Source of the DNA: an uncultured delta proteobacterium
GTDB lineage: Bacteria > Desulfobacterota > Binatia > UBA9968
Assembly: GCA_963728565.1 (NCBI GenBank)
Contig: CAVSLC010000021.1
Coordinates: 1-64,000, forward strand
DNA: 64,000 nt
Reading direction: 5' to 3'
The translations under genes were made by a program, and so were the position numbers. Numbering within the stretch: the first letter of the stretch is position 1; each line of letters starts with the position of its first letter. Positions 5,946-22,115 of this stretch are shown here, piece after piece. Under the pieces are notes generated by a model. It ran no database searches, had not been told where the DNA came from, and worked only from the letters and a program-made list of their open reading frames with translations.

Positions 5946-6506
5946 TTACCCGGGTGGGATTTTGTCAACTAGCTTGCCATTACTATAAAGCTCATAGCCT
6001 TTGAGGCTCAATTCGTATCCACGCGGCGGATGGTCGGAGAAGTCAATGACGGTTAGATCGAGCACCAGGACAGTTTCTCCGCGCGCTGCAATATCAAACG
6101 ACAGCTTGACCGGCCCGATGGTATTTTTCACGGGTGCGCTACGTTGGTTTTTCTTGAGGAGACCGTCCACCGATTTGATTTTCACATGGAATGCATCAAA
6201 TGCTCCGGCGTCGATGTCCGCTCGGAATATCTTGGCGCTTTCTTTGCCGACATATTTGGTCAGATCGAGAGAGGATTGAGAAGGACTAAATTCCTTCCAA
6301 CGGGTCTGCCAAAACCTTAGTCCCGGTTTGGGGCTGATGGCGACGCTGTCAATGGTGAGGAGCAACCGGGAAAAATCGTCGATGGCCTCGCGGTGATCCT
6401 TGATGCGGAGTTCGAATGCGCCTTGCTCCGGTTGACCAGCGACCCCGGGGGCGACCCAAAGCGCCAGCAGAAGAAGGGTATTAAGGAAGCGCGAGCATGT
6501 CGTCAT
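5946..6506 (-). CDS. Exported DUF4382-like protein
   Basis: Signal peptide (LLLLALWVAPGVAG); ELRIKDHREAIDDFSRLLLTIDSV and LDLTKY resemble DUF4382; ATGA overlap with upstream SCO stop. Confidence 0.6.
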   Translation of the reverse strand: MTTCSRFLNTLLLLALWVAPGVAGQPEQGAFELRIKDHREAIDDFSRLLLTIDSVAISPKPGLRFWQTRWKEFSPSQSSLDLTKYVGKESAKIFRADIDAGAFDAFHVKIKSVDGLLKKNQRSAPVKNTIGPVKLSFDIAARGETVLVLDLTVIDFSDHPPRGYELSLKGYELYSNGKLVDKIPPG

Positions 6507-7129
6507 TGCGGCCCAGCCTGACGTAGCCGCGCTAGATCCTTCAGGACTTCTTTCTCCAGCCATTTGTCACCGTAATAATCGACGCGGCGAATCCCTTTTC
6601 GATCGATGAGAGTGGTAAGGTTGGTGTGCTGAATTTGGCCGTTACCCAGATCTTTGACAGCCACGCCGAATTCTTTCCACACTTGGGCCAACGCCTCGCG
6701 AGTGCCGCTGAGAAAATGCCAGCGCTTAAAGTCCGCATGGAAAGCCTGTGCGTAGGCTTTCATCTTTGTCGGAGTGTCTCGCGCCGGATCGGTGGTGATG
6801 GTCAAAAGAAGGTAATCGTCACGATTGTCCTCCTCCAAGATTCGTTGCATGGATGCCAATTTTGCTGTGAACAGAGGACAAACATCAGGACACGTGGTGT
6901 AAACAAACGTGACCAAGACAAGTTTCCCGCTGGCAGGGGTGAAATTAAACGGCTTGTCGAATTGATCGATGAGGGCAAAGCTCGGCGCCGGTGTGCTCGA
7001 CTCCCTGCGGCCTATTTCGCCTTTTTTCGGTGGAATCGGAATGTGTGAAAAGACCAGTGTCGACGACAACAGGCCTACGCCGAAAAACACCGCGGCAATC
7101 CACAGGCTAATGCGCAACTTGAAAGTCAT
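6503..7129 (-). CDS. SCO1/SenC-family protein
   Basis: FVYTTCPDVCP (CxxxC), ITTDPARDT, QHTNLTTLID (conserved His); N-terminal anchor/signal. Confidence 0.92.
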   Translation of the reverse strand: MTFKLRISLWIAAVFFGVGLLSSTLVFSHIPIPPKKGEIGRRESSTPAPSFALIDQFDKPFNFTPASGKLVLVTFVYTTCPDVCPLFTAKLASMQRILEEDNRDDYLLLTITTDPARDTPTKMKAYAQAFHADFKRWHFLSGTREALAQVWKEFGVAVKDLGNGQIQHTNLTTLIDRKGIRRVDYYGDKWLEKEVLKDLARLRQAGPQ

Positions 7130-8012
7130 AGGTGACATTTAGCTCTTTTATTCCTTCGGGAAGGTCGCCGCGCACCATGTAAGTGGTCGAGAACTCCGAC
7201 TCCTCCCCGGGGCGTAGTTCGACCGGAAGCAGCAAGGCACAATCGATGATATCCAGATAGTCGCTGAGCTCGTCGGGCTCAATGCGATGAGTGATCCGAG
7301 TCGAGATCGTCTGCGCCGTTCGATTCTTGACTCGGTAGGCGATGGTGAAAGGTTCGCTCGGGCGGATTGTCGTGGCTTTATTGACGGGGACTGCTTCGAT
7401 GGATTGTGTCAAAGGCACTACCGCGTCATAACTCACCCTGATTCCGGCAGCCCAATCGAGATGAACCCGCCAGCTCGTGCCTTCCTTCACCAACGTAAAT
7501 TCTTCCTCGCCCTCAATTGTTTTAATTTCACCGGCGCGATTCATCTGATCGAGCGTGGCTAGAATGTCGCGCTGCATGGATGATGGCAAAGCATTCAGCC
7601 GCTCTTCGTCCCAATCCAGCAGGATGGCCGAAAAGCTATTCGCGTCGGGGTATTTAGCTTCAACTTTGACCCGCATTTGGCCGTTCTGTTCTCTTACGGT
7701 TTCCAGCGGGCGCAGTTCGATGAATTGCGCTAGCTTGCGTGTCACGGCAAGCGGAAAACCGCTGAAGGATCCTTTTTCGCGAACATATACGCGCTCGGCC
7801 TTGAGCTGCCGATCGCCCAGGGATATGTACCGATAGGCTTTCTTGAAATCGCGCGCGTAAGAATTCTTGACATAAGCCTCGACGGTGTTGAACGGCTCTG
7901 TCTGGACGTTGTGCTGCGGCGAGCTGCTCCTACTGTAGAGAAAAGCGGCCGGCAGAATCAGTATGAACGCCGCCGCCACACCTAAAAACCAACTTGTCGT
8001 TCGTGAGTTCAT
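7107..8012 (-). CDS. NTF2-like + Cox11/CtaG-like fusion protein (paralog A), single-Cys motif
   Basis: C-terminal IRVSYDA...IRPSEPFTIAYRVKN...THRIEP...DYLDIIDCALL...LRPGEESEF...DLPEGIKELNVTYDF follows the Cox11 pattern; N-terminal YVKNSYARDFKKAYRYIS. Confidence 0.7.
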   Translation of the reverse strand: MNSRTTSWFLGVAAAFILILPAAFLYSRSSSPQHNVQTEPFNTVEAYVKNSYARDFKKAYRYISLGDRQLKAERVYVREKGSFSGFPLAVTRKLAQFIELRPLETVREQNGQMRVKVEAKYPDANSFSAILLDWDEERLNALPSSMQRDILATLDQMNRAGEIKTIEGEEEFTLVKEGTSWRVHLDWAAGIRVSYDAVVPLTQSIEAVPVNKATTIRPSEPFTIAYRVKNRTAQTISTRITHRIEPDELSDYLDIIDCALLLPVELRPGEESEFSTTYMVRGDLPEGIKELNVTYDFQVAH

Positions 8013-8091
8013 CCGATATTTCTTGTTGTATCAAGGCCTACATTCGTCGATTCTGCGCTGAGAGTCCGCGGGTTCGTTATCGGGCAGTGAG

Positions 8092-8991
8092 CTAGTTACT
8101 GCTCAAAGTGACCGCATAGGTAACGTTTAGCTGGCGCACTCCCTCGGGAAGGTTTTTTCTGAGAAGATAAGTGCTGACGAATTCTTCTTCTTTTCCAGGC
8201 GCTAATCGCACTGGCAAAAGAAAACCACACTCGACAAGGTCGAGATAATCGCGAACTCCATAAGGATCGACTAAGTGGCCTATGCGAGCGAAAAGCTGCT
8301 CCTGACTGGTATTTTTAATGTTGAGCACGACTTTGAAGATTTCACCCGGTCGGGTTACCACAGCCGAATGCGCGAGACGCGCTTCGACTGGAACTGAACT
8401 CGGAATCGAGGTTTGAAAGCCGACGTTCACCGGCGATATCCAATTCAGAACAATCTTCCAGGCAGCGCCCTCTTTGGCTATTTCGAAAACATCCTCTCCT
8501 TGAATCATCTCGATCGCATGACTTCGACGCAACTTGTCAATACCGGCCAGCAGCGTTTTGCGCTCGCTGTCTGGTAACGCTTCCAGCTGGTCGATATCCC
8601 AATTGTGCAGCAGCGGACCTAGCTTTCCCGCGTCCGGCACTGCGAACTTAATTTTTATTGTCGCTTGTCCGTCGACGATCCGGGTCTCGACAGGCTTCAG
8701 CTCTATATAGCTCGCAAGTAGTCTGGCGATCTCTAGTGTGAATCCGGTAAACCCGCCCCGGTCTCTGACATAGCTGGCGCGATCTTTTAGGCGTTGGTCG
8801 GGAGTGGCGATGTGGGAGTAAGCTTCCTCATAGTCTCTGGCGTAGGTTGCCCGAACATAGCGGTCCAACGTGCGGACCGCGTCCTGTTGATCGGCAGCAA
8901 CGGCGGAGCGCATATCGGGGCTAGATAGCGCCAAGAGCGCGATTACAAACAAAGCCGAACAGGAGCTTCGAGTCGATAAATCTCTTTTCAT
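8092..8991 (-). CDS. NTF2-like + Cox11/CtaG-like fusion protein (paralog B)
   Basis: YVRATYARDYEEAYSHI; TRPGEIFKVVLNIKN...GHLVDP...DYLDLVECGFLLPVRLAPGKEEEF...LNVTY; signal peptide. Confidence 0.7.
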   Translation of the reverse strand: MKRDLSTRSSCSALFVIALLALSSPDMRSAVAADQQDAVRTLDRYVRATYARDYEEAYSHIATPDQRLKDRASYVRDRGGFTGFTLEIARLLASYIELKPVETRIVDGQATIKIKFAVPDAGKLGPLLHNWDIDQLEALPDSERKTLLAGIDKLRRSHAIEMIQGEDVFEIAKEGAAWKIVLNWISPVNVGFQTSIPSSVPVEARLAHSAVVTRPGEIFKVVLNIKNTSQEQLFARIGHLVDPYGVRDYLDLVECGFLLPVRLAPGKEEEFVSTYLLRKNLPEGVRQLNVTYAVTLSSN

Positions 8992-9047
8992 GCAACGCCA
9001 AATCCGAGGTAGCCGTACAACAAGTTGTCACCACAACTTGTGTTTGG

Positions 9048-9629
9048 TTAAGGCGCTTTGGCTGGAATCGTCCAAAGATAAATCGTCCGACCGTTGACTC
9101 GCTCGGTCTTATCGGGTTTCCAATCCCCCATATCGAACGCATGAGAGACCACCCGGGAACCAGGTTTAAGCTGTTTTAGGAGATTCGGTTTGAGCTTCAA
9201 ATTAACATCCGGCAAAAGGTACATCGTTACCACTGTGGCCGGCGAGAGATCTACAGTTAGGATGTCCTGTTGTTTAATCTCAGCCAATTTTTCCAAACCT
9301 GCTTTGCGAATGTTCTCCCGTGACTCTTTGACGAGGTCGCCGTCGACCTCGAATCCTACCGCCCGGGCGTCCTTCCTGGCGGCGGTGATGACGATTCTGC
9401 CGTCACCGGACCCAAGATCGTAGACCACGTCGCCTTTCTTTACTCCGCCAAGCTCAATCATCTTGTCGACGACTTCTTGTGGCGTGGGCACAAACGGTAC
9501 GATTTTCTTAGATTCAAGATCCTGGGCCTGGGCAGTGCCAGCGAAGATTTCGAAACGTCCATACTGAAACGATGAGAGGGCAAACACAACCAGAATTGCA
9601 GCCAGTGAAAGACGATGTTGCGGTTTCAT
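9048..9629 (-). CDS. Exported aKMT/FAM173-like SAM methyltransferase (paralog of 1160-1738)
   Basis: Signal peptide ending AQA; VPFVPTPQEVV, VYDLGSGDGRI, VVTMYLLPDVNLKLKP, RVVSHAF; SD GGAGG. Confidence 0.88.
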   Translation of the reverse strand: MKPQHRLSLAAILVVFALSSFQYGRFEIFAGTAQAQDLESKKIVPFVPTPQEVVDKMIELGGVKKGDVVYDLGSGDGRIVITAARKDARAVGFEVDGDLVKESRENIRKAGLEKLAEIKQQDILTVDLSPATVVTMYLLPDVNLKLKPNLLKQLKPGSRVVSHAFDMGDWKPDKTERVNGRTIYLWTIPAKAP

Positions 9630-9716
9630 TTTCTAGCCTCCCTTTTTGGCAATCAACGGTGTCCGAATCAATTAACCATAAAAAAAATCTAGTCGCCACT
9701 ATCTAGCTAATGCAGA

Positions 9717-10340
9717 TCAAGGAGGGCTCGGGCTCAATGCCCGCATATCTTTCAAAAAATCGCTGAACTGCCATTGCGGACCCAAGAAACTGATTCTGCG
9801 GGTGCCATGGGCATCACTCAAGGTCGTTAAATTCGTGTGTTGCACCAGCCCACGGCCTCTCCGGATCACTTGAACACCGAAACCTTTCCAGACATCTTTC
9901 AGGCGTGACTCATCGCCGGTTAAGAATGCCCAGTTGTGAAAATCGGCGCCGAACCGTTGTGCATACGCCTTCAATACTTTCGGCGAATCAATTTCCGGGT
10001 CGGTGGTAATGCTCACAAGAAAAGAATTCAGTTGAGTTTGGGTGCGAAGCGCTTGTTGCAGCCGGGCAAATTCCACCGTGAATAGCGGGCAAACGTCGGA
10101 GCAGGTGGTATAAATGAAATTCACCGCGACGATTTTGCCGCGCAGTTTGATGTCAGCGTCAAATGGATTACCTTCTTGATCTATCAACGTGAAAGAAGGC
10201 ATCTTCGCGTTCGAGGTAACTCGACGCGACGCTTCTGTTTTCGTCTTGATAGGTTCATGGGCTGTGACGGTGCTCGCAACCGCGCCGGTAGTGAAGACGA
10301 GTAGCGTTATCAGGCAGCTATTTGCTAACTTCAAACGCAT
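9717..10340 (-). CDS. SCO1/SenC-family protein
   Basis: FIYTTCSDVCP, ITTDPEIDS, QHTNLTTL; ATG at 10340 overlaps the upstream gene by 23 nt. Confidence 0.9.
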   Translation of the reverse strand: MRLKLANSCLITLLVFTTGAVASTVTAHEPIKTKTEASRRVTSNAKMPSFTLIDQEGNPFDADIKLRGKIVAVNFIYTTCSDVCPLFTVEFARLQQALRTQTQLNSFLVSITTDPEIDSPKVLKAYAQRFGADFHNWAFLTGDESRLKDVWKGFGVQVIRRGRGLVQHTNLTTLSDAHGTRRISFLGPQWQFSDFLKDMRALSPSPP

Positions 10341-11262
10341 AGGTGAGCGCCAAGTCTCGGAAGTTCTTCCTAACCGATTTTTCCAGCAGATAAGCCATCG
10401 AGAACTCTTGCTGAGTTCCCGCTTCGAGCACAAGGCGTTGCCCGAGGCCGCAGTCGATCATCTCGAGATAGTCGGCGGCCTCCGTCGGTTCGATCAAGTG
10501 GCGCATGGCCAGAACCACTCTGTGCCTGCCGCGATTATTAATCTTCAAATTGACCTGAAAAGGCTCTTCCCCTCGGGTGATAATTTCATGCTGTAAAAGT
10601 TTGATCTCAACGTCTGATCTTTCGGCCAAGACCGTATGCGCCTTGACCTTCGTTCCGCCGGCCCAGTCGTTAAAGATTTTCCAGGCATTTCCCTCTCGAA
10701 TGAGCTCGAATGTTTCATGTCCCTGAATCCTCGGCAGATTGCCGCTTCGCATTCGCGCAGCCAGCGCATCAAGCAAGAGGGTCTGCTCCCCGGTCGAAAG
10801 TGAATTCAGCTTTTCTGAATTCCAGTCCCATACCAGCGCCGAAACATCTTCGGAAGCTGGTACAGAGTACTCGACTTTGATTATTGACCGATTGCTCTCG
10901 GTGGATTCGTCAATGAGATGCAAGTCCATGAAATCAGCGAGTTTACCGGCTAACCGAGCTGTAAAGCCGGTTAACTCTTCTTGCCCTTGAACATAACTAT
11001 CTTCAGCGCGAACTCTCTGGTCCGCTGCTGAGATATAGCGATAAGCGGCTCGGTAATCGCGCGCGTAAGTCGCCTTTAGATAGGATCGGATTACCGCTAG
11101 CGGGTCGTTCGCTTCGGTTTGTTGACGGCCTCGGTCTTGTAAGTGAACTGTAATTAAAGCCGTCGGAGCAAACAGGATCAATACGAGAAGTGTCCTGCGC
11201 AGTACAGTAAGAACCGTAGGAAAGTAACGCAAAATCTGTCTTGCGTGCAATTTTGATCTCAT
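10318..11262 (-). CDS. NTF2-like + Cox11/CtaG-like fusion protein (paralog C)
   Basis: YLKATYARDYRAAYRYIS; EPFQVNLKINN...RHLIEP...DYLEMIDCGL...LEAGTQQEF...LTYAF. Confidence 0.7.
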   Translation of the reverse strand: MRSKLHARQILRYFPTVLTVLRRTLLVLILFAPTALITVHLQDRGRQQTEANDPLAVIRSYLKATYARDYRAAYRYISAADQRVRAEDSYVQGQEELTGFTARLAGKLADFMDLHLIDESTESNRSIIKVEYSVPASEDVSALVWDWNSEKLNSLSTGEQTLLLDALAARMRSGNLPRIQGHETFELIREGNAWKIFNDWAGGTKVKAHTVLAERSDVEIKLLQHEIITRGEEPFQVNLKINNRGRHRVVLAMRHLIEPTEAADYLEMIDCGLGQRLVLEAGTQQEFSMAYLLEKSVRKNFRDLALTYAFEVSK

Positions 11263-11271: not shown

Positions 11272-11712
11272 CTATTTGACCATAAAGGTGACTTGATCAA
11301 TGGCGTCCATCTCGCTTTTATGGTCCTCTGCAACGACGCGTAGTTCCAAAATGTATTTCCCGGGCTTAATCCCGGTGAGGGTCCCTGTTTGGCTGTTGAA
11401 CATTCCCATCAATTCGCCATTCACATAAGCATGCACATGGTGGCCCCGTTTTCCTTTGACTAGTTTAAACTCCAGGGGAATTTGGTCTTTGCTAAAAATC
11501 TGGTCTTTTGTCGGGGATATTATTTTCACGCTGGCGCCATCGGCCGGCAATAGCTTGCCGCCTTGGCTGGCTCTGTCCGACCGGTTTGTCCGCCCGTCTT
11601 GATGCTGGTGACCCGACTCGGCCGCGACGGAATCATCACCAAAAAAAGGATTTGCCATAATGGTGGCGCCGGCAATTAGCGCTCTTAACGTACGGTCAAT
11701 TGATTTTGGCAT
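11272..11712 (-). CDS. Exported His-rich Ig-like beta protein, putative metal chaperone
   Basis: Signal peptide, GHQHQ after cleavage, SVKIISP...GHHVHAYVNG...PGKYILELRVVAEDH; SD GAGGAG. Confidence 0.65.
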   Translation of the reverse strand: MPKSIDRTLRALIAGATIMANPFFGDDSVAAESGHQHQDGRTNRSDRASQGGKLLPADGASVKIISPTKDQIFSKDQIPLEFKLVKGKRGHHVHAYVNGELMGMFNSQTGTLTGIKPGKYILELRVVAEDHKSEMDAIDQVTFMVK

Positions 11713-11787: not shown

Positions 11788-12348
11788 TCACCTTCGTATA
11801 CCGGCATTCATGAGCGCTGTCGATAAGCGTTCCGGCGTGAGTGGGCCGATGATGATGTCGCGGATGATGCCTTGACGGTCAATAAAAAAGGTTGCTGGCG
11901 GACCAAAGATCCGATAGGCCCGCTTCACCGTGCTATTCAAGTCAAGCGCAATAGGAAGAGTAAGTTTAAACTCTTTAGCATATTCTGTCACTGCGGCACG
12001 ACTGTCTTCGACGGCAATCCCAAGGACGCTGTAACCTTTGTTCCCCGATTGAGCCGCGAGTTCGTTGATAAGCGGCATTTCTTCCCGGCATGGATCGCAC
12101 CAGCTAGCAAAGAAATTAATCACCAATGGCTTGCCACGGAGGTTTGTCAGGCTGATTGGTTTGCCATCGAGCGTTTTGAGTTCAAACGGAGTCGCCGCCG
12201 CGCCAATCTGCGGCGCAGCGTTTTGCCTTGGAGGATGAGAGTGCTGTGCTTGCACGGTAGCGCAGGGAGACCCAAAGGCAAGAACGCAGCCCAATAAAAA
12301 TGCACCACGGCCAAGTATCGTAACAATAGTGGATTCCATTTTTTTCAT
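11788..12348 (-). CDS. TlpA/ResA-family thiol-disulfide oxidoreductase
   Basis: INFFASWCDPCREEMP, cis-Pro loop GPPATFFIDRQG; signal peptide followed by QHSH. Confidence 0.92.
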   Translation of the reverse strand: MKKMESTIVTILGRGAFLLGCVLAFGSPCATVQAQHSHPPRQNAAPQIGAAATPFELKTLDGKPISLTNLRGKPLVINFFASWCDPCREEMPLINELAAQSGNKGYSVLGIAVEDSRAAVTEYAKEFKLTLPIALDLNSTVKRAYRIFGPPATFFIDRQGIIRDIIIGPLTPERLSTALMNAGIRR

Positions 12349-13715
12349 TTGGCTACCGTCGCGCTTCGAAGCGCCGCTCGGGAGTTCTCGCCGTCGGTTT
12401 CCGTCCAGGCAACGTGCAGCCGATCTTTAAAAAGCGCCAGGACAGGACGGCTGGCGTTGCCTTCGGCGTTACTCACCTGCTGGATAGGTCCCCAAGAACG
12501 GCCATCAGGTGATAAAGTGCGAAGAAAAATCTGCGCTCTGTTGTTGCCGTCGAGATTACTCCACGCCAGGTAGACTGTGTCGTCGTTGCCCAGTATTAAA
12601 GTTGAGTAGAGAATTTCCGGAGCCGTGTTTGCGTGCACTAGTTGCCGTGCTTGAAAGCCCTTACCGCCATCAGTAGAAACGCTGTAATAAATTCCTGCCT
12701 CGCGTTCGGTCCGACCGAGCGTGAACCATGTCACGTGCAGCCACCCGCGAGAGTCTCCTCCGATGCTCGGACCGGAGTGGGGGCAGGAGGGAACTTGCCA
12801 GCCATCATCGCTGATCACTACAGGCGCGGCGAATGTTTTGCCGCCATCTATGGACTTACGCAACACATGGTTGCGAATCTGATGATCGTCTACTTGCCGA
12901 TCGACTAGGTAAACTGTCCTGCCCCCGTCCGCAAAAGCAACACCGAGCTTGCAACATTCGCACAGTCCTTTGCCCACCGAGTAATTCCTCGTGAGATCGT
13001 TTCCATTGGAATCGAGCTTCATAAGATACAGCTGGCGTGGATTAGGATTATCTATGCGACGATCGATCCAGGCCAGCAATACGCTACCATCCGGCGATAC
13101 TTCGATGATCGGAAAACGCGCGGCATCTCTAACTTCATTGAGGGTTCGCGCCGGGCTGAAGCCGCCCTTTTCGTCTTCCATTGCGAAGCGGATGTTGGCG
13201 CGAGTTTTGTCGCCTTTCCCACCGGAGGTGGACCACGCGACATAAGCTTTGTTGTTCATCCCGAACGCGACTTTAGGGCCGTTCTCTCCTTCTTGGATGG
13301 CCTCCGCCGAGCGGTTCACCTGTTTGACCCAAGACCAAGTCTTGCCGCCGTCGCTCGACGCCGCCAAAAACGCGTTACGCATCGGCGACGGCGCCATCTT
13401 GCCGGACGGATGGGGTTGATGCGCGGCGGACTGAGTTTTCTCAGAACTCGAGCCGTGGTCAGCTTCGATCCAGATGGCGAACAATCGGCCATCCGGACTA
13501 TAGCGGAGAAATGGGGTCGAAGGGTTGTTGTCGCTTTGTCCCAGGCGTTGCTCCGGGCCAAAGGCTAGATTTACCGTGCGCCGGGAAGCGCCGGGCGTGG
13601 TGTTATGACCGCTGCAAGCCGTTAAAAATAGACACAGCGACAGTGCAATAGTAAGTGGTCGCGCCTGGAATGTCGCATAAGCGATCCGAGGCGGAAAATC
13701 GTTTTTCTTGTTCAT
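12345..13715 (-). CDS. BNR/Asp-box (sialidase-like) beta-propeller lipoprotein with CECC and CPH motifs
   Basis: Lipobox LTAC; Asp-boxes SSDGGKTW, SIDGGKTF, STDGGKGF; GLCECCKL and PSCPHSGP; start reassigned to MNKKNDF at 13715. Confidence 0.85.
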   Translation of the reverse strand: MNKKNDFPPRIAYATFQARPLTIALSLCLFLTACSGHNTTPGASRRTVNLAFGPEQRLGQSDNNPSTPFLRYSPDGRLFAIWIEADHGSSSEKTQSAAHQPHPSGKMAPSPMRNAFLAASSDGGKTWSWVKQVNRSAEAIQEGENGPKVAFGMNNKAYVAWSTSGGKGDKTRANIRFAMEDEKGGFSPARTLNEVRDAARFPIIEVSPDGSVLLAWIDRRIDNPNPRQLYLMKLDSNGNDLTRNYSVGKGLCECCKLGVAFADGGRTVYLVDRQVDDHQIRNHVLRKSIDGGKTFAAPVVISDDGWQVPSCPHSGPSIGGDSRGWLHVTWFTLGRTEREAGIYYSVSTDGGKGFQARQLVHANTAPEILYSTLILGNDDTVYLAWSNLDGNNRAQIFLRTLSPDGRSWGPIQQVSNAEGNASRPVLALFKDRLHVAWTETDGENSRAALRSATVAK

Positions 13716-13827
13716 AGAACCGCCCTCATAAAGACGTAGCTCCGCGGTTCCGGCGCAATGCCGGGAATTTGCGAGCTGTTGTTGCCGCGGTGAAAAACTC
13801 CGGCATTCTGCCGAGAGATAGCTAAGT

Positions 13828-14238
13828 CTAGGCTCGCGGAGGCGCTCGCTGGGAGGACAGAGAACGGCTGACCTGGTAGGGCGCTGAAACCGGAGAATCA
13901 GGCTGGGCTTTAATCTCAGGCCCGTGATAGGCAATTTCTACCGGCTGATAAAAGAATAAATGCGAATTCTGCGCAACCGTTTGCGCGACGCAGTCGGAGT
14001 TGGTGGAGCTTTGGCCGCGATCTGAATTTGCCGGGCCGCTGTGATGATCGTGCCCGTGTTCATGACCCTCGCTAGCAGCTGCAACTGGCGCCGTTTCATG
14101 ATTGCCGCCCTGCGATGGTGGTAGATTCTCAAAGAGGTGATGAACCCGATGCGGTGCCGAAGAGGCGAGCAGTAGAAAAAAGAAGCTGACTACGGCCAGA
14201 GTTAGACTCCGGCTTGGATTAACGATTCTCTTTCTCAC
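13828..14238 (-). CDS. DUF2946/CruR-like His-rich leader protein ending in RAPP (putative ribosome-arrest peptide)
   Basis: N-terminal TM/signal, HRVHH, GHEHGHDHH, single Cys (DCVAQ), Pro/Ser-rich linker, C-terminal QRAPPRA-stop. Confidence 0.75.
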   Translation of the reverse strand: MRKRIVNPSRSLTLAVVSFFFLLLASSAPHRVHHLFENLPPSQGGNHETAPVAAASEGHEHGHDHHSGPANSDRGQSSTNSDCVAQTVAQNSHLFFYQPVEIAYHGPEIKAQPDSPVSAPYQVSRSLSSQRAPPRA

Positions 14239-14470: not shown

Positions 14471-15307
14471 CTAGTCGATCCAAGAGGTCTTCGAAGGTCC
14501 TGTGCGCAGCAGCATGGTCGATTCCAAGATAATAAACAGCGCGGCGGCGGTGAGCACGATGGTCGCGGCCGATGAAATGTCTAAGTAAAAACTCAGATAC
14601 ATGCCGACGGCACTGCAGAATATTCCGATCAGAGGCGAGACGCACAGCAGCGTCCCAAAGCGCTTCGTGAGATAGCGGCCGATGACCGGCGGAATCACCA
14701 TGGCCGCGGCAACCAGGGTGACGCCGAGGATCTGAGTCGAGGCCAGCACCGTAATTGCCAGCAAGATAACAAAGAACAAGTCGGTTTTTCCGGTGGCGAT
14801 GCCATAAGCCGAGGCCACCTCGGGATCAAAGGTCAGAAACAGCAACTGCCGGCGCATCACAATGAGCGCCACGAAAACTATGATGGAAATAGAGGCAACG
14901 ATCCAGAGGTCTCTTGAAGTGATGCCGAGAATATTGCCGAAAAGGGCGGCTTCGATGTTCCGTGTAAAACTCCGGTAAGTGGATACAATGGCAACCCCCA
15001 AGGCAAAGCTGGAAGTGGTGACCACGCCGATGGCCGCATCGGCGCCGACCCAGCGGCGGTGGCTGATCCGGTGAATCAAATATGCCGCTATGAGCGCCCA
15101 TAGACCGGCGCCGAAAAAGAAGTTGATGTTGATCACGTAGCTCAATACGGCGCCGCCGAAAATCGCATGAGATAAACCGTGGCCGATGTAGCTCATGCGG
15201 CGCAGTACGACATAAACGCCGATGAAGCCGCAAAGCGCGCCGACAAGCACAGCGGCGATGAAGCCGTTGCGAAAAAACTCGTACTCAAACGGGGCGAGTA
15301 AATACAT
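14471..15307 (-). CDS. Metal ABC transporter permease (ZnuB/MntB family)
   Basis: IGVYVVLRRMSYIGHGLSHAIFGG, LFGNIL, TFDPEVA. Confidence 0.93.
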   Translation of the reverse strand: MYLLAPFEYEFFRNGFIAAVLVGALCGFIGVYVVLRRMSYIGHGLSHAIFGGAVLSYVININFFFGAGLWALIAAYLIHRISHRRWVGADAAIGVVTTSSFALGVAIVSTYRSFTRNIEAALFGNILGITSRDLWIVASISIIVFVALIVMRRQLLFLTFDPEVASAYGIATGKTDLFFVILLAITVLASTQILGVTLVAAAMVIPPVIGRYLTKRFGTLLCVSPLIGIFCSAVGMYLSFYLDISSAATIVLTAAALFIILESTMLLRTGPSKTSWID

Positions 15308-15402: not shown

Positions 15403-16263
15403 CTAAGTATGCGGCGCGTGCGGGCGCTCGCCGATCATGACCATGCCGTCATGATGAAACACGACCATTTCGCCTCGATATGTCTCTTTGAGCACGTCGG
15501 CATTGAAGACTTGGTACGGACGGCCTTCGGCGATCAAACGCCGGTTCAGACAAACGGCCCAGGGAAGGTGGGCCGCGACCCAGTTCAAATCGTGGGCGGT
15601 AATGACGATGGCAACTCCGCTGTGGTTGATCTCGTGCAAAAAATGAATCACATCGTCGCGCGAGCGAATATCGAGTCCAGCGGTGGGCTCGTCGAGCAGG
15701 ATCAGCTTCGGACTGCCTAAAAGGGCGCGTCCCAGGAATACGGCCTGTTGCTGACCTCCGGAGAGTTCTCGGATATGGCGATTGCCAAGCCCGCTAAGAT
15801 TCAGCCGCGCCATGACCTCCCTGCGTTTTTGCTTTTCTTCAGCACCGGGACCGCGAAACCACCGATTGTTATTATAAAAGCCCATGGCAATCACTTCTTC
15901 GACGGTGATGGGAAAGTTCCAATCAATGGTCTCCAACTGCGGCACATAGCCGATCCGTTCCAATGAAGCTCGTCGCAGCTTCTCGCCCTGCATCAGAATT
16001 TCGCCTTGCGTTAGCGGGACCATCTTCAGGATTGTTCGCAGCAGTGTGGTTTTCCCGCCGCCGTTGGGCCCGACGATCGCCATGAACTGTCCCGGCCAGA
16101 TCTTGAGCGAGAGGTTTTCCAGCGCGGTGGTAGACCCATAGGCACTGCTGACATCAACCAATTCAATCAATGGGACTGTACTGGACGGGCGCTCAACGCG
16201 TTCCTCAACGCCTGGAGGATGGAGGCTCTGCGGGTCCCCCGGCCGGTGGTCGTGCGGGTTCAT
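15403..16263 (-). CDS. Metal ABC transporter ATPase (ZnuC/MntA family)
   Basis: GPNGGGKTT, IGYVPQ, LSGGQQQ, LLDEPTAGLD, HDL. Confidence 0.93.
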   Translation of the reverse strand: MNPHDHRPGDPQSLHPPGVEERVERPSSTVPLIELVDVSSAYGSTTALENLSLKIWPGQFMAIVGPNGGGKTTLLRTILKMVPLTQGEILMQGEKLRRASLERIGYVPQLETIDWNFPITVEEVIAMGFYNNNRWFRGPGAEEKQKRREVMARLNLSGLGNRHIRELSGGQQQAVFLGRALLGSPKLILLDEPTAGLDIRSRDDVIHFLHEINHSGVAIVITAHDLNWVAAHLPWAVCLNRRLIAEGRPYQVFNADVLKETYRGEMVVFHHDGMVMIGERPHAPHT

Positions 16264-16275: not shown

Positions 16276-17289
16276 CTAATCCTTCCGCCGGTAATTGGCG
16301 TGGGAGCCTGCCACGGGTGAGGGATCGACCTTCTTTAATGATTCGGCAGAACCTCCGAGCGCTTCAAACATAATGGAGAGATTTTCAAGCATCATACCTA
16401 TATAGGAGTGCCGCGCCTCGCCGGGCTTGCCCGGCAATTCATCGTCCCGGAGCTTATCGATGTAGCGGGTTTTGCCTTCCCGGGCTATCTGTTCGAGAAC
16501 CGGACTGGGAAAAACTTCTGATCCAAAGACGGCAGGGACTTTTTCTCTTCTGATCTGATCGATGAGCCTTTTTACCTCCCTAACGCTCGGATCGGAGAAA
16601 TCCGACGGCTGAACAGCGCCGATGATATGAAAGCCATAACGGCGTGCGAAATACGGCCACGAATCATGATACGTGAGCAGGCGCCGGTTACTTTCGGGTA
16701 TCGTCCTAACGGATTCCTCTATTGCGCTGTCGAGCGCCTCGAGCTTCTTCAAGAACGCAGCCGCATTTGCTTCATAGGCGCTCTTATTGTTGAAATCGAG
16801 CCGAATCAGCTCGTCGCGAATCAGAGTAGCGTAACGCATGGCATGCTGAGGGTTGAGCCACAGATGCGGATTTGGGTGGCCATGCTCTTTGGGGAAACTG
16901 AAATCGTAAATATATTCCTTTTCGCTGATCGTCTTCTCGCCGAGAAGAAGCAGCGCGACGCCTTTTTTCATATTCGCCCGCGCCAGATTCAGCGTCGGAA
17001 TTTCGAGATCCAGCCCATTGCCGATGAGCAGGTCCGCCTGCGCAAGTAACTTGACGTCTGACGGCACGGGCTCAAACGTATGAGAATTGATTCCTTCGGG
17101 AATGATTCCGGTGAGACCAATTTTATCACCCCCGATGTTCTCGACGATACTGGTGATCGGCGCGACGGTGCTGACCACGTTTAGCCTTTCGGCCTTGACG
17201 GATTGTTTATCTTCCTGTCGGCCACAGGCATTGATAGCGCACGCTAAGACGACCACAACCAGGTAAGAGAGCTTGCCTTTATAATTCAT
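16276..17289 (-). CDS. Metal ABC transporter substrate-binding lipoprotein (cluster A-I, ZnuA/TroA family)
   Basis: Lipobox INAC; NSHTFEP, NPHLWL, TYHDSWPYF; start at MNYKGK 17289. Confidence 0.93.
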   Translation of the reverse strand: MNYKGKLSYLVVVVLACAINACGRQEDKQSVKAERLNVVSTVAPITSIVENIGGDKIGLTGIIPEGINSHTFEPVPSDVKLLAQADLLIGNGLDLEIPTLNLARANMKKGVALLLLGEKTISEKEYIYDFSFPKEHGHPNPHLWLNPQHAMRYATLIRDELIRLDFNNKSAYEANAAAFLKKLEALDSAIEESVRTIPESNRRLLTYHDSWPYFARRYGFHIIGAVQPSDFSDPSVREVKRLIDQIRREKVPAVFGSEVFPSPVLEQIAREGKTRYIDKLRDDELPGKPGEARHSYIGMMLENLSIMFEALGGSAESLKKVDPSPVAGSHANYRRKD

Positions 17290-17299: not shown

Positions 17300-18199
17300 C
17301 TATCTCCGAAGCCGGAATCGGTAAACGTAGGTGAACTCGGCCGGGACATTCTGGCCGTCGTTCTGGGCAGGCTGGAAACGGGCCTGCTTCACTGCCTTCA
17401 GGGCCTCATCGTCGAAACCGGCGCCGCCGCTCTTGATGATTTCTGCGTCGGTTACGGTTCCTTTGCTGTCGATTGTGACTCTTAAGGTAACGTCGCTTTC
17501 TACTCCCATGCGCAGAGCCATGGGTGGATACGTCGCCCGAACAGTTTGCACTGGCTTGGCTTCGCGTCCGGTAGGAACCGGAATTGTTGGTGCCGGCAGA
17601 CCCGGTGTCCCTGAATCTCGCCCGAACCCGGGAGACGCCGTGCCGCCGGCTCCTGCCGATCCGGGAATGACCCCCAACTCTCCCATGCCGGAAAGGTTCC
17701 CCGCGCCGGCCTCGGCGCCACCACCTTCAGCCGGAGCGGTCGGATATTGTGGCACTGCTTTCTTTGGCAGAGTGGTGTGAGACTGGGGCGATTCCACAGC
17801 TTCCTCTGGAGGAGGCGACGTCACTCCCGAGGGGGGAACTGGCTCAACGGGTGGTTTCTTGGCCACGAGCTCGTCTCTTTCCGGTTTCGGTAATTTAGGT
17901 TTAGGAGCGGCCAGCGACGGTTTCTTAACCGAGTTTGGTGTCTCTTGCCGGGACGGCGTTTCTTGCTTCACTGGGGGCAGTTCAAGAAGTCCGACCGGAA
18001 TCAACTCCCGGTGTCGCAAAATACTGTCTTCGTTCTTGAACGCCGTCGGCGCCACAATCACGACGACCGCATGGATCAGGCATGAAGCAACCAGCGAGAA
18101 AGCCAGCCTGGAATCATCTAGCAAAATCATGAATGTAGCTTTACGGTGGCGAGACCATAACCTGGCCGACTTTGAGAATGAGCTCGATAAACGCAACAT
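17300..18199 (-). CDS. tonB: Energy transducer TonB
   Basis: TM with SCLIH motif, Pro/Lys-rich linker, C-terminal YPPMALRMGVESDV...FDDEALKAVKQARFQPA; start may be 18130. Confidence 0.88.
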   Translation of the reverse strand: MLRLSSSFSKSARLWSRHRKATFMILLDDSRLAFSLVASCLIHAVVVIVAPTAFKNEDSILRHRELIPVGLLELPPVKQETPSRQETPNSVKKPSLAAPKPKLPKPERDELVAKKPPVEPVPPSGVTSPPPEEAVESPQSHTTLPKKAVPQYPTAPAEGGGAEAGAGNLSGMGELGVIPGSAGAGGTASPGFGRDSGTPGLPAPTIPVPTGREAKPVQTVRATYPPMALRMGVESDVTLRVTIDSKGTVTDAEIIKSGGAGFDDEALKAVKQARFQPAQNDGQNVPAEFTYVYRFRLRR

Positions 18200-18260: not shown

Positions 18261-20314
18261 TTACCACAACTGAATCGTTATCCCCCCCTTGACCGTAAAG
18301 GGATCGCCGGGAGTGATATGTGAATCAAGAGTTCCCACGCCGGATGGTTCCGTAGAAAGTCTCGACTCAAATACATGCTCCGCCGCGTGCCATTTTGTGT
18401 TGGCCAGGTTCTGAAACTCCACGAAAAACTCGTAGCGCTGCCAAACGTATTTCAAGAAAAGATCAAAGATCGTCAACGACGGCGTCTTGATGCTGCCATC
18501 CTCGATGCCGTAGCGCCGGCCAATGTGACGCATCTGCAAACGTCCCTGGAGGCCGGACTGATGACGGGCGGTAATCCCTGAAAACGCGAGAAAGCGCGGT
18601 GCCAGGGGAACTTTGTCGCCGTTGGTGAATTTGCCCAAGTATACGAGAGATCGAGATCATAGGTCAGCCAGGGGAGGATCTCGTAACGCAACTCGCTCTC
18701 GACGCCATGGCGATTGCTCGACCCGCTCGGCTCAAAGCCGCCCTCGTCGCCGACGAATACCAGCTCGCTTTCGAGGTACGAACGCCAATAGGCCAGCGTT
18801 ACATCCAGGCGATCGAACAAGCGTGTTTTGGAGCCGACCTCGCCACCCCAAAACCGGGGGATTTTTTTATCTGGATCCTGAACGAAGACGCGCGCATCAT
18901 TACTATGAAAGCCACCGCCGAAATTTAAAAACAGGTTCGTCGCTTTGGCGACGTTGTTATCGGTAAACGGGGTGAAGATAAAGTTGAGCTTGGGATTTAC
19001 TATCGTTGCCGAACCGTCTCCGGTAAGCGGTTCCTCGACATCCCCAATCTGGTCGACTTTGTACCAGAAGTTGTCCATGCGGGCGCCGATCTGAGTGCGC
19101 AACCAAGATGCAGGTTGAATTTCCTGCTGCACAAACCAGCCGAGATTGGTTTGTTCGATGTCGTTATTTTTCACAGTCTCGCGGCGCCGTCGTTCCGTTT
19201 GATTAAAAAGACTAACACGGATGTGGTCGAAGCGGCTCTGAAAACCCACGAAGCTTTCCATCGGCAATCCCCAGAGACGGTAGTTGCGGCGATAATTGAT
19301 GTTGTTGCCCGCTAAAAATCGCTTATCGCGTTGTTCGATGCCATCGCCGTTCACCTCGTCGTTTAGAAGTAGACTGAAGTTGGACCAGAGCTGGAGTCGG
19401 TACCATGAAATCCACGTCTGAGCATTGAAGCTCTGATTGGCATCCGTGTAGTTGTAGAGCAGACTTAGATTTTGCCGTTCCGACTTTCCTCCCTCACTTG
19501 GATCGAACGATCCGAAGCGACCGATCTCGCCGCTAGGAACCGCGCGGCCGGGCAGCTCGCCGGACGCATCCCAGGCGGTCTTGAAGAACGTACCGAGAAG
19601 ATTCAAATTTGAATTCGCCGTCGACAGCAGGCCAAACTTGGCGAGCAGGTTATATCGGTTGTAGTTGTTTTCACTCTTGAATGGTCCGTCATTATGATAA
19701 AACTCGCCGGCGATGAAGGGGCTCAGGGGGGTTCCTTCGGACGGTGACAGGATGCCTACGTAACGCTGCGTGTTATAATTTCCGCCGCTGAGAGTCAACG
19801 TGCTGTCTTTGTCGTGCCGCTTGGTAATGATGTTCATCGCTCCCGATGTGGCGAAGTCGCCGAGATGCGCAAAATACGGTCCCTTGTATATCTCCACTCG
19901 ATCGATGGTCTCGGGAATGAGCCAGTGCATATCGGCGTATCCCTGACCATGAGCATGGCTCACCATGTTTACCGGCATGCCGTCGATAAAAACCGCAAAG
20001 TCAGTGCCGTGATCGGAATCGAAACCGCGAAACAGAACCTGGTCCGCTTTGCCGCCACCGTGATGCTGGCCGATAGTCAAGCTGGGAGTCAGGCGCATGA
20101 CGTCGCTCGGCGTATTCGATGGTCGTAGCTGCAGGTCGCGCTGCCATCGGGTCTGCTCCGTTGCCGCAGAGGTGGGCTGCTGGCCCCAGATATAGACCTC
20201 TTCAACCGGAGAAGCCGCTTCTGCCGCATGGGCGTAGGCATAGCCGCAGGCCGAAGTAAGCGCGAGCAAAAGCAAAGCTGCAACGTGCATCGTGAAAGTT
20301 TCTGCCGCTCGCAT
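18261..20314 (-). CDS. TonB-dependent receptor, His-motif Ni/Co-type; one frameshift near 18630
   Basis: Plug motifs QHHGGGKADQ, RGFDSDHGTDF, NMVSHAHGQGYAD; ORFs 18473-20314 and 18261-18638 join if one A is restored in GCAAATTC; C-terminal aromatic residue (IQLW). Confidence 0.88.
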
Positions 20315-20331
20315 GGCTGTTCGGGTTTTGC

Positions 20332-21600
20332 TTAATCATGGCTCGGAGCTATAGCGCCGGGTTGTTGACCGATGGCGATCCTATGAAAGCGGCCGAACAG
20401 CACGCAGGCACTAGCCAAAATGAACGAGGCTGCCATGGCGACAAAAGCTACGGTCAGTCCTAACCATTCGCTCAGATAACCAACCGCGGGTGACCAGAAG
20501 GCGCCGGCGAGGAAAGTTGCGGTATAGAACCAGGCAAAGCCGGTGTCGCGACTGCTATCCGAGCTGGTATGCGCGACCAACGTTTGCAGAATTGGATGGG
20601 TGCCAAATGCCGTCACGCCCAGTATTAATGAAGCGATAGCGACACCCACATAACTGCTGCCCAAGGCAGGAATGATCAAAGTTGTGAGTGCCGAAATCAG
20701 ATAGGCGGTCAACAAGACCCGTTGGGGATGGTAACGATCCGCTAGTTTACCGCCGAGCATGGGGCCGAAAATGCTGCCGATGTTCATCAGGGTAAAAACA
20801 ACCCCGATGGCGGTGGCATCCATACCGAGATTGTGGTTCAAGTACAACGGAAGAAAGCTGGAGATAATGCCGTGACCGGATCCGCCGGCTGCGACGATCG
20901 CGGCAATCAAAATCCAGCGTAGGTTTTGGTTGGCGAACACCTGGCCGCTGTCCTGCCAAAATGTCGATGTCCCCGCCTCGTGGCGGATTTGATTAGTCGC
21001 GGGATCTTTCAGCCACAGCGACATGAGGACACCGACCAAAATCGCCGGAATCGCGAAAAGAATGACCGTGCCGCGCCAGCCCCAGAGAGAAATCAGGATC
21101 GCGGCACACAGCGGGATTATCGCTGTTCCGATATTTCCGGCGGTGAAGTGAGTGGCCAGTGCGGTGCCGAGTTTGCGCTTTTTAAAGTGGTGCGACAACA
21201 AGGAGGCCCCGACCGGGTGTTGGGCGGCTCCGCCGACTCTGGACATGACCGTCCAGAAGAAGAACTGAAAATAGCTTTGCGCGAGGCCGACAAAAACGAA
21301 GCAGACTCCCACACTGGCATTACCGATGCCGAGGATTTGGTGGCGCGGCAGGATTCGTCCCAGCGCGCCGGCACCAAGTTGCAGCAGTCCACCGACGGCG
21401 CTTGCCACTCCTAGCATGATGCCGAGTTCGCCATAGCCAAAGTTGAGATCGCGCAGCACGAGGGGAAATACCAGCGGCTTAAGCGCCCCCTGCGCATGAT
21501 TGATGCCGTGTGCCAAGCTGACGAGGGTCAGCGCGGCCGATGAGCGCGCGCTCGCATCATTTGCGACGGCGATGTCGTGAACATGCTCTGGTAACTTCAT
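20332..21600 (-). CDS. MFS transporter (Fsr-like)
   Basis: About 12 TM helices; LAHGINH, AAQHPVG, GGKLADRY. Confidence 0.88.
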   Translation of the reverse strand: MKLPEHVHDIAVANDASARSSAALTLVSLAHGINHAQGALKPLVFPLVLRDLNFGYGELGIMLGVASAVGGLLQLGAGALGRILPRHQILGIGNASVGVCFVFVGLAQSYFQFFFWTVMSRVGGAAQHPVGASLLSHHFKKRKLGTALATHFTAGNIGTAIIPLCAAILISLWGWRGTVILFAIPAILVGVLMSLWLKDPATNQIRHEAGTSTFWQDSGQVFANQNLRWILIAAIVAAGGSGHGIISSFLPLYLNHNLGMDATAIGVVFTLMNIGSIFGPMLGGKLADRYHPQRVLLTAYLISALTTLIIPALGSSYVGVAIASLILGVTAFGTHPILQTLVAHTSSDSSRDTGFAWFYTATFLAGAFWSPAVGYLSEWLGLTVAFVAMAASFILASACVLFGRFHRIAIGQQPGAIAPSHD

Positions 21601-21618
21601 TTCAAAGCTCCGCTTTTC

Positions 21619-21645
21619 GTAGCAACAATTGGAAGAACGTGTTAC
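21619..21645. promoter_or_regulatory. Candidate NikR operator upstream of MFS-TBDR operon
   Basis: GTAGCAA-N13-GTGTTAC imperfect dyad in the 61-nt nikR-MFS gap. Confidence 0.6.
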
Positions 21646-21661
21646 CGCTGTGCAAAATTTT

Positions 21662-22078
21662 TTAATGCTTCAGTTCCGGCGAAGTCGTCACCAGCTTGCC
21701 GTTTTGCACCCCTTTGGTCGCGATCAGTTTACCCGCAATCTCGTGCACCTTATCGCCACGTCCGCGGATGACAATCACCTCCAGACAATTATGCTCGTCC
21801 AGATGAATGTGCAGGCTCGCGTTAACTGCAACTTCGGCTTTGTGCTGCATATCCGCGAGCACATCGCTCAGGCGATGCACCCGGTGGTCATAGACGAGGG
21901 AGACCACGCCGATAACCTCGGCAGTGCCTTGGCCGACTCGCCTTTGGATCAGGTGATCGCGGATCAGATCGCGAATCGCCTCGGAGCGGTTTTGATAACC
22001 TTGACCACCGATACTCAAATCAAACGCGGCCAGTAGATCCTCCTCCAGGGAAACTCCGAAGCGGGACACCGTGCTCAT
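21662..22078 (-). CDS. nikR: Nickel-responsive transcriptional regulator NikR
   Basis: RHH domain RFGVSL...GYQNRSEAIRDLIR; Ni site QH...LHIHLDEHNCLEV. Confidence 0.96.
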   Translation of the reverse strand: MSTVSRFGVSLEEDLLAAFDLSIGGQGYQNRSEAIRDLIRDHLIQRRVGQGTAEVIGVVSLVYDHRVHRLSDVLADMQHKAEVAVNASLHIHLDEHNCLEVIVIRGRGDKVHEIAGKLIATKGVQNGKLVTTSPELKH

Positions 22079-22085
22079 CGAAAAT

Positions 22086-22115
22086 TTCGTAACACGTATG
22101 AGAATTTGATGTCAA
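22086..22115 (-). promoter_or_regulatory. nikR promoter overlapped by candidate NikR operator (probably leaderless mRNA)
   Basis: Minus strand TTGACA-N18-TACGAA with extended -10 TG, 7 nt before ATG and no SD; plus strand GTAACAC-N13-ATGTCAA. Confidence 0.55.

Follow-up and report, generated by a model that had tools for sequence, protein, structure and literature searches.

Which metal does an operon handle when a nickel regulator stands at its head and copper-chaperone folds make up its tail? The question is raised by a cluster of 18 genes from an uncultured soil delta proteobacterium of the class Binatia (GCA_963728565.1, contig CAVSLC010000021.1, positions 1-64,000). We refer to this 64-kb stretch, which was analysed as a whole, as the window, and to the home genome, whose assembly is 80.6% complete, as G000. 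Metal specificity is usually read from protein families. NikR is a Ni sensor and stands for nickel; Sco, Cox11 and CopD stand for copper, and SCO, Cox11, TlpA and DUF2946 proteins normally serve Cu delivery or uptake. Here one of these rules must give way: nickel may be handled by re-tuned copper-chaperone folds, in an organism without a known Ni enzyme, or else copper supply is under NikR control. Both sets of families are joined in a single operon, conserved in a class of soil and marine bacteria that is uncultured but common around the globe. What we describe is the combination of a NikR-headed importer with copper-chaperone folds; the evidence for nickel and for copper conflicts, and we leave the choice undecided. 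With due caution, we nevertheless propose that the cluster is a single metal-starvation operon under NikR, controlled in two tiers, whose metal is most likely Ni(II).

All 18 genes lie on the minus strand between positions 5946 and 22078, about 16 kb, as do all cluster features described below. With nikR at the head, the order is nikR, MFS transporter, TonB-dependent receptor (TBDR), tonB, substrate-binding protein (SBP), ABC ATPase, permease, leader, BNR propeller, TlpA, HHVH protein, Cox11-like, SCO, methyltransferase, Cox11-like, Cox11-like, SCO and DUF4382. An earlier note on this DNA had listed 18 co-directional genes of these families, and Pfam and NCBIfam bear this out nearly one for one; Pfam families above cut-off are missing only for the HHVH protein and the leader, which ends in a RAPP motif. 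The TBDR consists of two overlapping frames in this assembly and of a single intact gene in G005, a genome of the same genus. The overlapping starts and stops that the note had ascribed to many genes are found at 4 of 17 junctions (-4, -23, -32 and -4) once gene starts are refined against G005; the remaining gaps measure 9-232 nt, and the widest, of 232 nt, precedes the leader. Statements on signal peptides and membrane anchors are based on N-termini read by eye and on one AlphaFold2 (AF2) helix, with no predictor. G005 contains all 18 genes in identical order. Because of this identity, and because a core of the cluster recurs in three families, the arrangement is not a product of chance. The flanks are unrelated: on one side a molybdate-transporter operon runs divergently, and on the other there is a PAP2 phosphatase gene on the opposite strand.

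The head gene, nikR (21662-22078, 138 residues), matches NikR_C at 96.3 bits (cut-off 22) and RHH_1 at 32.7 bits, and its product passes the NCBIfam equivalog NF003381 (172.5 bits, cut-off 105). Against the NikR of P. horikoshii (2bj1; E 1.5e-34) the columns 'dmqHk' and 'slHiHldehnC' are identical, and among them are the His/His/His/Cys columns, which we take to be the high-affinity Ni site. By equivalog score and Ni-site columns this is a typical NikR, and the claim that a bona fide NikR heads one conserved unit is supported. Our survey of relatives covered 41 genomes of the order, in families f1, f2 and f3 (tallies count the unpublished genome G018, and that for acireductone dioxygenase (ARD) also G012). 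There is a single NikR_C match per genome in G000, G005, G024 and G025, each heading this cluster, whereas G037 gave no match. Downstream sequence is available for 22 nikR loci, and in every one of them a transport gene (MFS, TBDR or SBP) comes next; five loci, one of them L083 of G018, have a divergent SCO gene upstream of it.

Eleven to 37 nt upstream of the nikR start lies a NikR-type box of 27 bp, TTGACAT-N13-GTGTTAC (22089-22115), the left half of which doubles as a -35-like TTGACA. It is the sole match in the window, where 0.05 are expected by chance. All 17 upstream regions of nikR in f1, that of L083 included, carry TTGACAY-N13-GTG(T/C)TAC 37-54 nt before the start codon, and the N13 spacing is invariant in all 17 loci; in f2 the direct form GTGTTAC-N13-GTAACAT occurs at no more than 3 mismatches in 4 of 5 regions. 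The deltaproteobacterial NikR box is given as GTGTTAC-N13/14-GTAACAC, with the reversed GTAACAC-N13/14-GTGTTAC in one species (Rodionov et al., PMC545781). A scan of the window for the forward box at no more than 3 mismatches found none near nikR, and the reversed form emerged from de novo comparison of nikR upstream regions. The f1 element is the reversed form and resembles the published one, from whose half-site the left half-site of the window box deviates at 2-3 positions. Autoregulated repression at the nikR promoter is, we infer from these sequences, a well-founded expectation.

How far does the remainder of the cluster follow nikR? A Cox11-like protein is found in 30 of the 41 genomes and nikR in 22; by family, G000 apart, nikR is present in 16/24 genomes of f1, 5/5 of f2 and 0/11 of f3. 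Both genes occur in 19 genomes, 11 of which have them on a single contig at a distance of about 10 kb. The core of SBP, ZnuC and ZnuB with Cox11-like, DUF4382 and SCO genes recurs in three Binatia families. Its compact f2 form reads nikR, SBP, ZnuC, ZnuB, (leader, HxH protein), Cox11-like, DUF4382, SCO and VKOR. The order in f3 is fused CydDC-like exporter, SBP, amidohydrolase, ZnuC, ZnuB, Cox11-like::DUF4382 fusion, SCO and VKOR, the fusion having DUF4382 at its C-terminal end. In G037 (f3) the exporter gene stands directly upstream of the SBP gene (L023, 14225-18043) and encodes a fused double ABC exporter of 1272 residues, made of two ABC_membrane plus ABC_tran halves and CydDC-like by eye. 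A CFCF-type query against 185,579 species genomes returned 48 loci, 46 of them with a Cox11-like match; among these 46 an orthologous permease lies within 7 kb upstream in 22, SCO downstream in 29, DUF4382 downstream in 26, and nikR within 10 kb upstream in 7. We suggest that the ABC importer is the hub, because it pairs with NikR in f1 and f2 and, throughout the three families, with the genes for Cox11-like, DUF4382 and SCO proteins.

A variant cluster of other Binatia (L036, L038, L052) consists of nikR, a NicO-like permease, a porin-like gene, the same leader, DUF4198, a CopD::HxH fusion, Cox11-like, SCO and HxH genes. The NicO-like call in L038 reaches 23.5 bits, below the cut-off of 27.7, and NCBIfam assigns neither the SCOs nor DUF4198 nor the NicO-like protein to a specific class. 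DUF4198 in this cluster has a mature N-terminal His. A DUF4198 protein with an N-terminal His is described as binding Ni with a dissociation constant of 18 nM and preferring it over Cu, and the gene neighbours given for that family include NikR_C and TonB receptors (PMC12537917); another member, Zcp, is reported to buffer or capture periplasmic zinc for ZnuA (PMC12663993). The variant thus shows the chaperone module staying with NikR although another importer has taken the place of the first. In L071, moreover, an HxH gene separates the permease gene from the leader. With the downstream half linked to nikR in f1 and f2 and kept when the transporter changes, the idea of one conserved unit stands.

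The first gene of the back half (13828-14238) would encode a CruR/CutF-like leader peptide of 136 residues with a hydrophobic N-terminus, PHRVHH, a His-rich insert, Cys83 and RAPP. Cys83 is the only Cys; 47 residues follow it before RAPP at 131-134, two residues before the stop, so that the C-terminus reads RAPPRA. In 12 of 12 homologues H30, V32, H33, H34, C83 and RAPP are invariant and the alignment from Cys to RAPP is gapless; 11 of the 12, which come from related loci, have precisely 47 residues in between. A profile search of 1.84 billion representatives yielded 541 proteins at E<=0.001. Among the best 150 of these 541, HxVHH is present in 148 and RAPP/RGPP in 138; in all of these 138 a Cys stands 45-49 residues before RAPP/RGPP (exactly 47 in 116), CXXC occurs in none and CxxxC in 4. 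The leader scores 13.9 bits against Pfam DUF2946 (PF11162), below the cut-off of 23.7, and 3/12 homologues match this model at E<=1 (best E 0.013). By every positional feature it thus appears to be of the CruR/CutF kind, yet it falls outside the curated DUF2946 model.

CruR of B. pertussis is described as a DUF2946 leader with CXXC, 45 residues and RAPP three residues from its end, coupling copper sensing to ribosome arrest and Rho-dependent termination, and leaders of its type are reported mostly to head operons (PMC9426467). For CutF of R. capsulatus co-translational sensing of periplasmic copper is reported, and the same source places CutF-like proteins with His-only motifs beside HupE/UreJ Ni/Co transporters and suggests that they may sense Ni or Co (10.1101/2022.11.11.516240). 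Fourteen nt after the stop of our leader a short hairpin with a T-run (13800-13814) is a candidate attenuator on weak evidence; some relatives have hairpin plus U-run elements of similar kind after the leader, folding of the spacer between leader and BNR gene gave z = -0.82, which is not significant, and a promoter-like site precedes the leader (14323-14295). Counts of terminator-like and promoter-like sites in the cluster are no higher than in shuffles, and because of this the hairpin and the internal promoter are mere leads. A second type of RAPP leader exists in relatives (L024 4018-4350, L030 2746-3036, L036 2039-2347, L038 31-357, L043 8677-8970, L052 3968-4276); all have a CxC pair 46 and 44 residues before RAPP/RGPP, some also an HxHxH run. 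In several relatives it is encoded on the strand opposite to nikR, near a second, distant ZnuABC-like operon.

Downstream of the leader, three fusions of a transmembrane segment, an NTF2-like domain and a Cox11 domain score above the 25-bit cut-off of CtaG_Cox11 (PF04442): fusion 1 (10318-11262) at 25.2, fusion 2 (8092-8991) at 30.5 and fusion 3 (7107-8012) at 41.4 bits. Fusions 1 and 2 are 33% and 38% identical, respectively, to fusion 3, of which fusion 1 is a paralogue. The AF2 model of fusion 3 (mean predicted local distance difference test, pLDDT, 90.5) shows a helix at 4-29, an alpha/beta domain at 38-183 and a beta-sandwich at 191-300. Its top Foldseek match is apoCox11 1so9 (E 3.8e-7, TM 0.68, root-mean-square deviation 2.7 over 111 columns), which phmmer also matches at E 7.9e-8. 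His242 and Cys258 are invariant in 28/28 family members; in the alignment Cys258 corresponds to the first Cys of CFCF, and the second is replaced by Leu. The window sequences DCALLLP, ECGFLLP and DCGLGQR accordingly hold the first Cys only and do not form CFCF.

The hallmark of SCO proteins is C-x3-C with a distal His, and both SCOs of the window have it; Cys83, Cys87 and His171 are kept in 21/21 sequences. SCO 1 (9717-10340, starting at Met32 of a 238-residue open reading frame (ORF), as in G005) and SCO 2 (6503-7138) score 85.9 and 101.5 bits against SCO1-SenC (cut-off 22.8). The TlpA/ResA-like periplasmic thiol-disulfide oxidoreductase (11788-12348) matches AhpC-TSA at 98 and Redoxin at 81.5 bits, is below cut-off for ResA (119.2) and TlpA (66.5 bits), and has C-x-x-C in 9/9 sequences. 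The loss of one Cys from copper-type dithiols, which the earlier note had emphasized, therefore applies to the three Cox11-like domains and the leader; the SCOs keep C-x3-C and TlpA keeps C-x-x-C.

Four further back-half genes complete the set. The HHVH or HxH protein (11272-11712, 146 residues, motif GHHVH) belongs to no Pfam family. In its AF2 model residues 55-146 have pLDDT > 94 and the His-rich residues 1-51 are disordered; the fold search returned an Ig/Fn3-like beta-sandwich with generic Fn3/CARDB matches, CopC ranking 18th, and H92, H94, H131 and M104 are invariant. A relation to PCuAC or CopC was not adopted, as the fold matches are generic Ig/Fn3 only. DUF4382 (5946-6506, start at Met20 of a 205-residue ORF, 34.1 bits) is an exported protein in which His57, His178 and several Asp/Glu are invariant. 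The lipoprotein at 12345-13715 is a BNR/sialidase-like beta-propeller (BNR_2 29.5 bits, below the cut-off of 31.4) whose Atlas neighbours are BNR_2 clusters with scores of 0.96-0.98. Its CECC and CPH motifs and several His are invariant in 4/4 orthologues; such motifs are odd for a sialidase-like fold and, as far as sequence can tell, suggest metal or redox chemistry. A relation of the propeller to AztD was rejected on sequence, phmmer against all PDB sequences giving no match at E<=1. The methyltransferase (9048-9629), which depends on S-adenosylmethionine (SAM) and has an N-terminal hydrophobic segment, matches Methyltransf_31 at 38.9 bits and the archaeal protein-lysine methyltransferase model NF041081 at 130.1 bits (cut-off 200), and recurs at the same position in L028, L069, L071 and L072. 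It stands among exported proteins though SAM is not expected in the periplasm.

The front half consists of transport genes. Its SBP (16276-17289, start at Met21 of a 357-residue ORF) appears to be a ZnuA/AztC-like lipoprotein of cluster A-I (ZnuA 228.5 bits) whose closest solved relative is AztC 5w56 (E 2e-35); it reaches 180.1 bits in the NCBIfam AztC model, against a cut-off of 350. Three canonical His ligand columns are kept and Pro occupies the column of the fourth ligand, Asp in AztC/PsaA. His90, His162, His228 and His314 are invariant in 24/24 orthologues, His158 in 23/24. The ATPase (15403-16263, ZnuC/AztA-like, ABC_tran 108.8 bits) has MntA and AztA as top NCBIfam models, below cut-off, and the permease (14471-15307, ZnuB/AztB-like, ABC-3 217.2 bits) likewise stays below cut-off for AztB (181.2 bits). 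TonB (17300-18199) matches TonB_C at 73 bits. The TBDR (18261-20314) has plug and barrel domains and no specific NCBIfam class, nor a match to a copper-receptor model. Its frame is broken near 18572-18635, where the intact 679-residue receptor of G005 aligns to two overlapping frames of the window; the gene may be a true pseudogene, or the sequence may be in error here. The MFS transporter (20332-21600, 422 residues, MFS_1 163.8 bits), which follows nikR in most f1 loci, matches no NCBIfam model above cut-off, and inspection by eye alone saw no CcoA-like Met motifs. A complex prediction of SBP (53-357) with DUF4382 (45-205) returned no answer (0.00 against a mark of 0.32) and counts neither for nor against their contact.

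Several observations weigh against a single nickel operon, and they are best told with the rivals they favour. If the unit were a copper system, it would acquire Cu and feed heme-copper oxidases or other cuproenzymes, a TlpA-Sco-Cox11 starvation route being joined to an importer, and NikR would be a regulator with shifted specificity or a co-regulator. We consider this possible but on balance rather unlikely. SCO, Cox11, TlpA, CopD, CusF and CruR/CutF are all copper-linked families, those of the back half are canonical copper factors, and the characterised leaders CruR and CutF sense copper. The Cox11-like copies of f2 and f3 keep the canonical QCFCF, and in G025 and G037, both with COX1, they are the sole PF04442 matches. 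Relatives of the HxH protein have Met-rich N-termini or are fused to CusF (45.5 bits) or to CopD (80.5 bits). Outside Binatia, the fused Cox11-like gene of one Anaerolineales genome (L064) sits within a cox operon (COX1, COX3, Caa3_CtaG, UbiA) between Caa3_CtaG and heme O synthase, a Methylomirabilota-like locus has it near a two-HMA P1B ATPase, and in Entotheonella it lies beside c-type cytochromes. In f3 the ABC/Cox11-like/DUF4382/SCO core occurs although NikR is present in 0 of 11 genomes. G000 has COX1 genes, hence heme-copper oxidases, outside the cluster, and no copper chaperone is encoded in its cox operon (COX2, COX1, CtaA, CtaB, COX3). Few of the genomes have a known Ni enzyme: [NiFe]-hydrogenase occurs in 14/41 and was not found in G000, G005, G025, G027 or G037; nickel superoxide dismutase in 1/41; LarA in 0/41; ARD above cut-off in 7/41, with none in G000 and a sub-threshold match in G005; carbon monoxide dehydrogenase in 0/5; and for urease there are marginal matches only. 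Against the copper system stand, however, the typical NikR with its conserved box (we know of no NikR that senses Cu in vivo), the replacement of the ABC importer by a NicO-like permease and DUF4198 in the variant cluster, the loss of the second Cys from the three window Cox11-like copies, and a leader without CXXC. On the nickel side we also count that a search of G000, G005, G024 and G025 found no NicO-type Ni permease. Chaperones are also available elsewhere, as further SCO genes (in G000 one beside a cox gene on C10, plus another) and Caa3_CtaG (in G005, G025 and G037) lie outside the cluster, and 11 of 41 relatives have no Cox11-like gene (oxidases were not searched for in those 11). As a separate observation on C10, a second COX1 gene (G000:C10:111604-112933) is in two pieces with one in-frame TAG, the SCO gene being just beside it.

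In a second rival, two unrelated modules merely adjoin: a NikR-regulated Ni importer from nikR to ZnuB, and a leader-controlled copper-chaperone operon from leader to DUF4382. The 232-nt gap and the promoter-like site before the leader allow the back half a promoter of its own, leaders of the CruR type usually stand at operon heads, the window has no second NikR box, for instance before the leader, and the g22 genomes have nikR-SBP-ZnuC with no Cox11-like gene found in the genome. Such a coincidence is nonetheless improbable when the halves adjoin in three families, including the fused leaderless form of f3, when the chaperone module stays with nikR across the change of transporter, and when L071 has its HxH gene between the permease gene and the leader; the promoter-like site belongs to a class no more numerous than in shuffles. 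The least probable of the alternatives, and a very doubtful one, is zinc (or manganese) uptake of the AztABCD or ZnuABC plus ZinT kind, with the propeller and other exported proteins as zinc chaperones. Among solved structures and NCBIfam models, the ABC parts do come closest to AztC/AztB/AztA and Mn/Zn systems, the SBP site is of the three-His, ZnuA-like type, and DUF4198 includes the zinc-capture protein Zcp (PMC12663993). All NCBIfam scores are, on the other side, far under the equivalog cut-offs, the propeller has no sequence match to solved structures, and the regulator is NikR, not Zur. To our knowledge SCO, Cox11 and TlpA have no role in zinc handling.

The earlier note had combined Ni import with periplasmic metallation of a client, a reading that finds partial support: NikR, the box and their linkage speak for it, f3 without NikR, the kept CFCF, the CusF/CopD fusions and the cox context speak against it, and the metallation is conjectural. 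It had further stated that no oxidase, hydrogenase or urease client is encoded, which is true of the cluster and not of the genome with its COX1 genes. It had named as adverse a downstream half occurring without nikR and beside cox genes: in f1 and f2 the finding is the reverse, with eleven genomes linked and no cox genes next to the Cox11-like gene in the window or the Binatia loci examined; f3 lacks NikR, and the Anaerolineales gene lies in a cox operon.

Returning to a single NikR-controlled operon, we suggest the following course of events. Metal-loaded NikR would bind the 27-bp box over the -35-like hexamer and shut the operon off, Ni being the probable corepressor. Under starvation the front half would provide uptake across both membranes through TBDR and TonB, the MFS transporter and the ZnuABC/AztABC-type importer with its apparently all-His SBP. 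The leader would form the second tier, arresting the ribosome so that metal availability sets the output of the back half. TlpA might keep the SCO thiols reduced, and SCOs, Cox11 fusions (through their Cys and His pair), the HxH protein, DUF4382 and the propeller could then capture scarce periplasmic metal and pass it on, most likely towards the SBP and the importer. In this way Ni(II) would be handled by folds recruited from copper chaperones. Importer and chaperones most likely serve one metal because they are co-inherited. Our leaning towards nickel derives from a narrow-specificity regulator with a conserved operator, from the Ni-type parts swapped in by the variant cluster, and from the His-shifted leader and binding site. 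The boldest form of the proposal is dedicated Ni trafficking from Sco, Cox11, CopD, CusF-like and Ig-like HxH folds, switched by NikR and by the first nickel-responsive RAPP arrest peptide; because the genus is without the six tested Ni-enzyme families, it would serve an unknown Ni-dependent client, possibly metallated outside the cytoplasm. This form seems to us unlikely, somewhat more so than the copper system.

Two neighbouring loci of the window may be recorded here. The molybdate-type transporter operon divergent from nikR (22335-27030) begins with an HTH plus PBP_like regulator and has a TauE-family gene inserted. At 33185-41855 lies an rRNA operon with one 16S, two tRNAs, a tandem pair of full-length 23S genes (35266-38270, 38455-41458) and a single 5S; a second 23S inside one rRNA operon is uncommon and may have arisen in assembly. 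We attribute the strong GC skew at 28-42 kb to this operon and its tandem 23S.

In the literature we found no paper tying NikR to Sco or Cox11 or describing this gene combination; searches on Binatia with nickel or copper chaperones and on NikR with ZnuA gave nothing relevant, and for DUF4382 there was one unrelated paper. New here are the conserved 27-bp box, the HRVHH-Cys-47-RAPP leader subfamily and the importer-swapped variant cluster. We do not claim the HRVHH leader class as unpublished, as supplements to the CutF/CruR papers may already show an HRVHH-type cluster. If our interpretation is right, the leader subfamily with its 541 cluster representatives would extend metal-sensing translational arrest beyond copper. 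The locus also yields an apparently all-His SBP of the ZnuA class and, in DUF4382 and the Ig-like HxH domain, two candidates for metal binding that are as yet unstudied. The proteins concerned are small, soluble, expressible and titratable, which makes the question of the metal directly testable.

Four kinds of known systems come closest to the operon. With CruR and CutF it shares a small exported-looking ORF that precedes metal genes of the same strand, a RAPP motif ending 2-3 residues short of the C-terminus and a Cys at fixed distance (47 here, 45 after CXXC in CruR). Unlike them, it has no CXXC, shows an invariant HxVHH after the hydrophobic segment and, in this genus, a His-rich insert; the window leader lies inside the operon rather than at its head and scores below the DUF2946 cut-off. 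In the zinc systems AztD serves AztC and ZinT serves ZnuA as periplasmic capture partners. Together with Zcp (PMC12663993), these share with our cluster, where metal binding is putative, accessory periplasmic metal-binding proteins that are encoded or co-regulated with a ZnuA-class SBP, whereas the folds here are SCO, Cox11, Ig-like, DUF4382 and BNR, the presumed chemistry is that of thiols with a dedicated reductase, and docking to the SBP is only putative.

Copper delivery to oxidases is represented by TlpA-ScoI-PcuC of Bradyrhizobium, by Cox11/CtaG and by SenC/PccA with CcoA/CcoI of Rhodobacter. A TlpA-type reductase, Sco with C-x3-C and His, and a membrane-anchored Cox11 fold are common to these systems and to ours, as are, in relatives, CFCF, CopD, CusF and P1B-ATPase partners. 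The differences are that our cluster lies away from cox genes under a NikR head with an ABC importer joined to it, and that Cox11 in this genome is triplicated, NTF2-like fused and without the second Cys. NikR systems include nikABCDE-nikR of E. coli and, in H. pylori, NikR with a TonB-dependent receptor and NiuBDE. NikR boxes are also reported for deltaproteobacterial nikMNQO (PMC545781). The cluster resembles NikR-regulated Ni uptake in having an intact-site NikR beside transporter genes, a 27-bp N13 box, and TonB uptake with an ABC importer. It departs from it in that a search for known Ni enzymes found none in this genus, that the importer appears to be of cluster A-I (ZnuABC/AztABC) and not NikABCDE, ECF or NiuBDE, and that nine to ten further genes for exported proteins, with SCO, Cox11-like and TlpA among them, have joined the operon.

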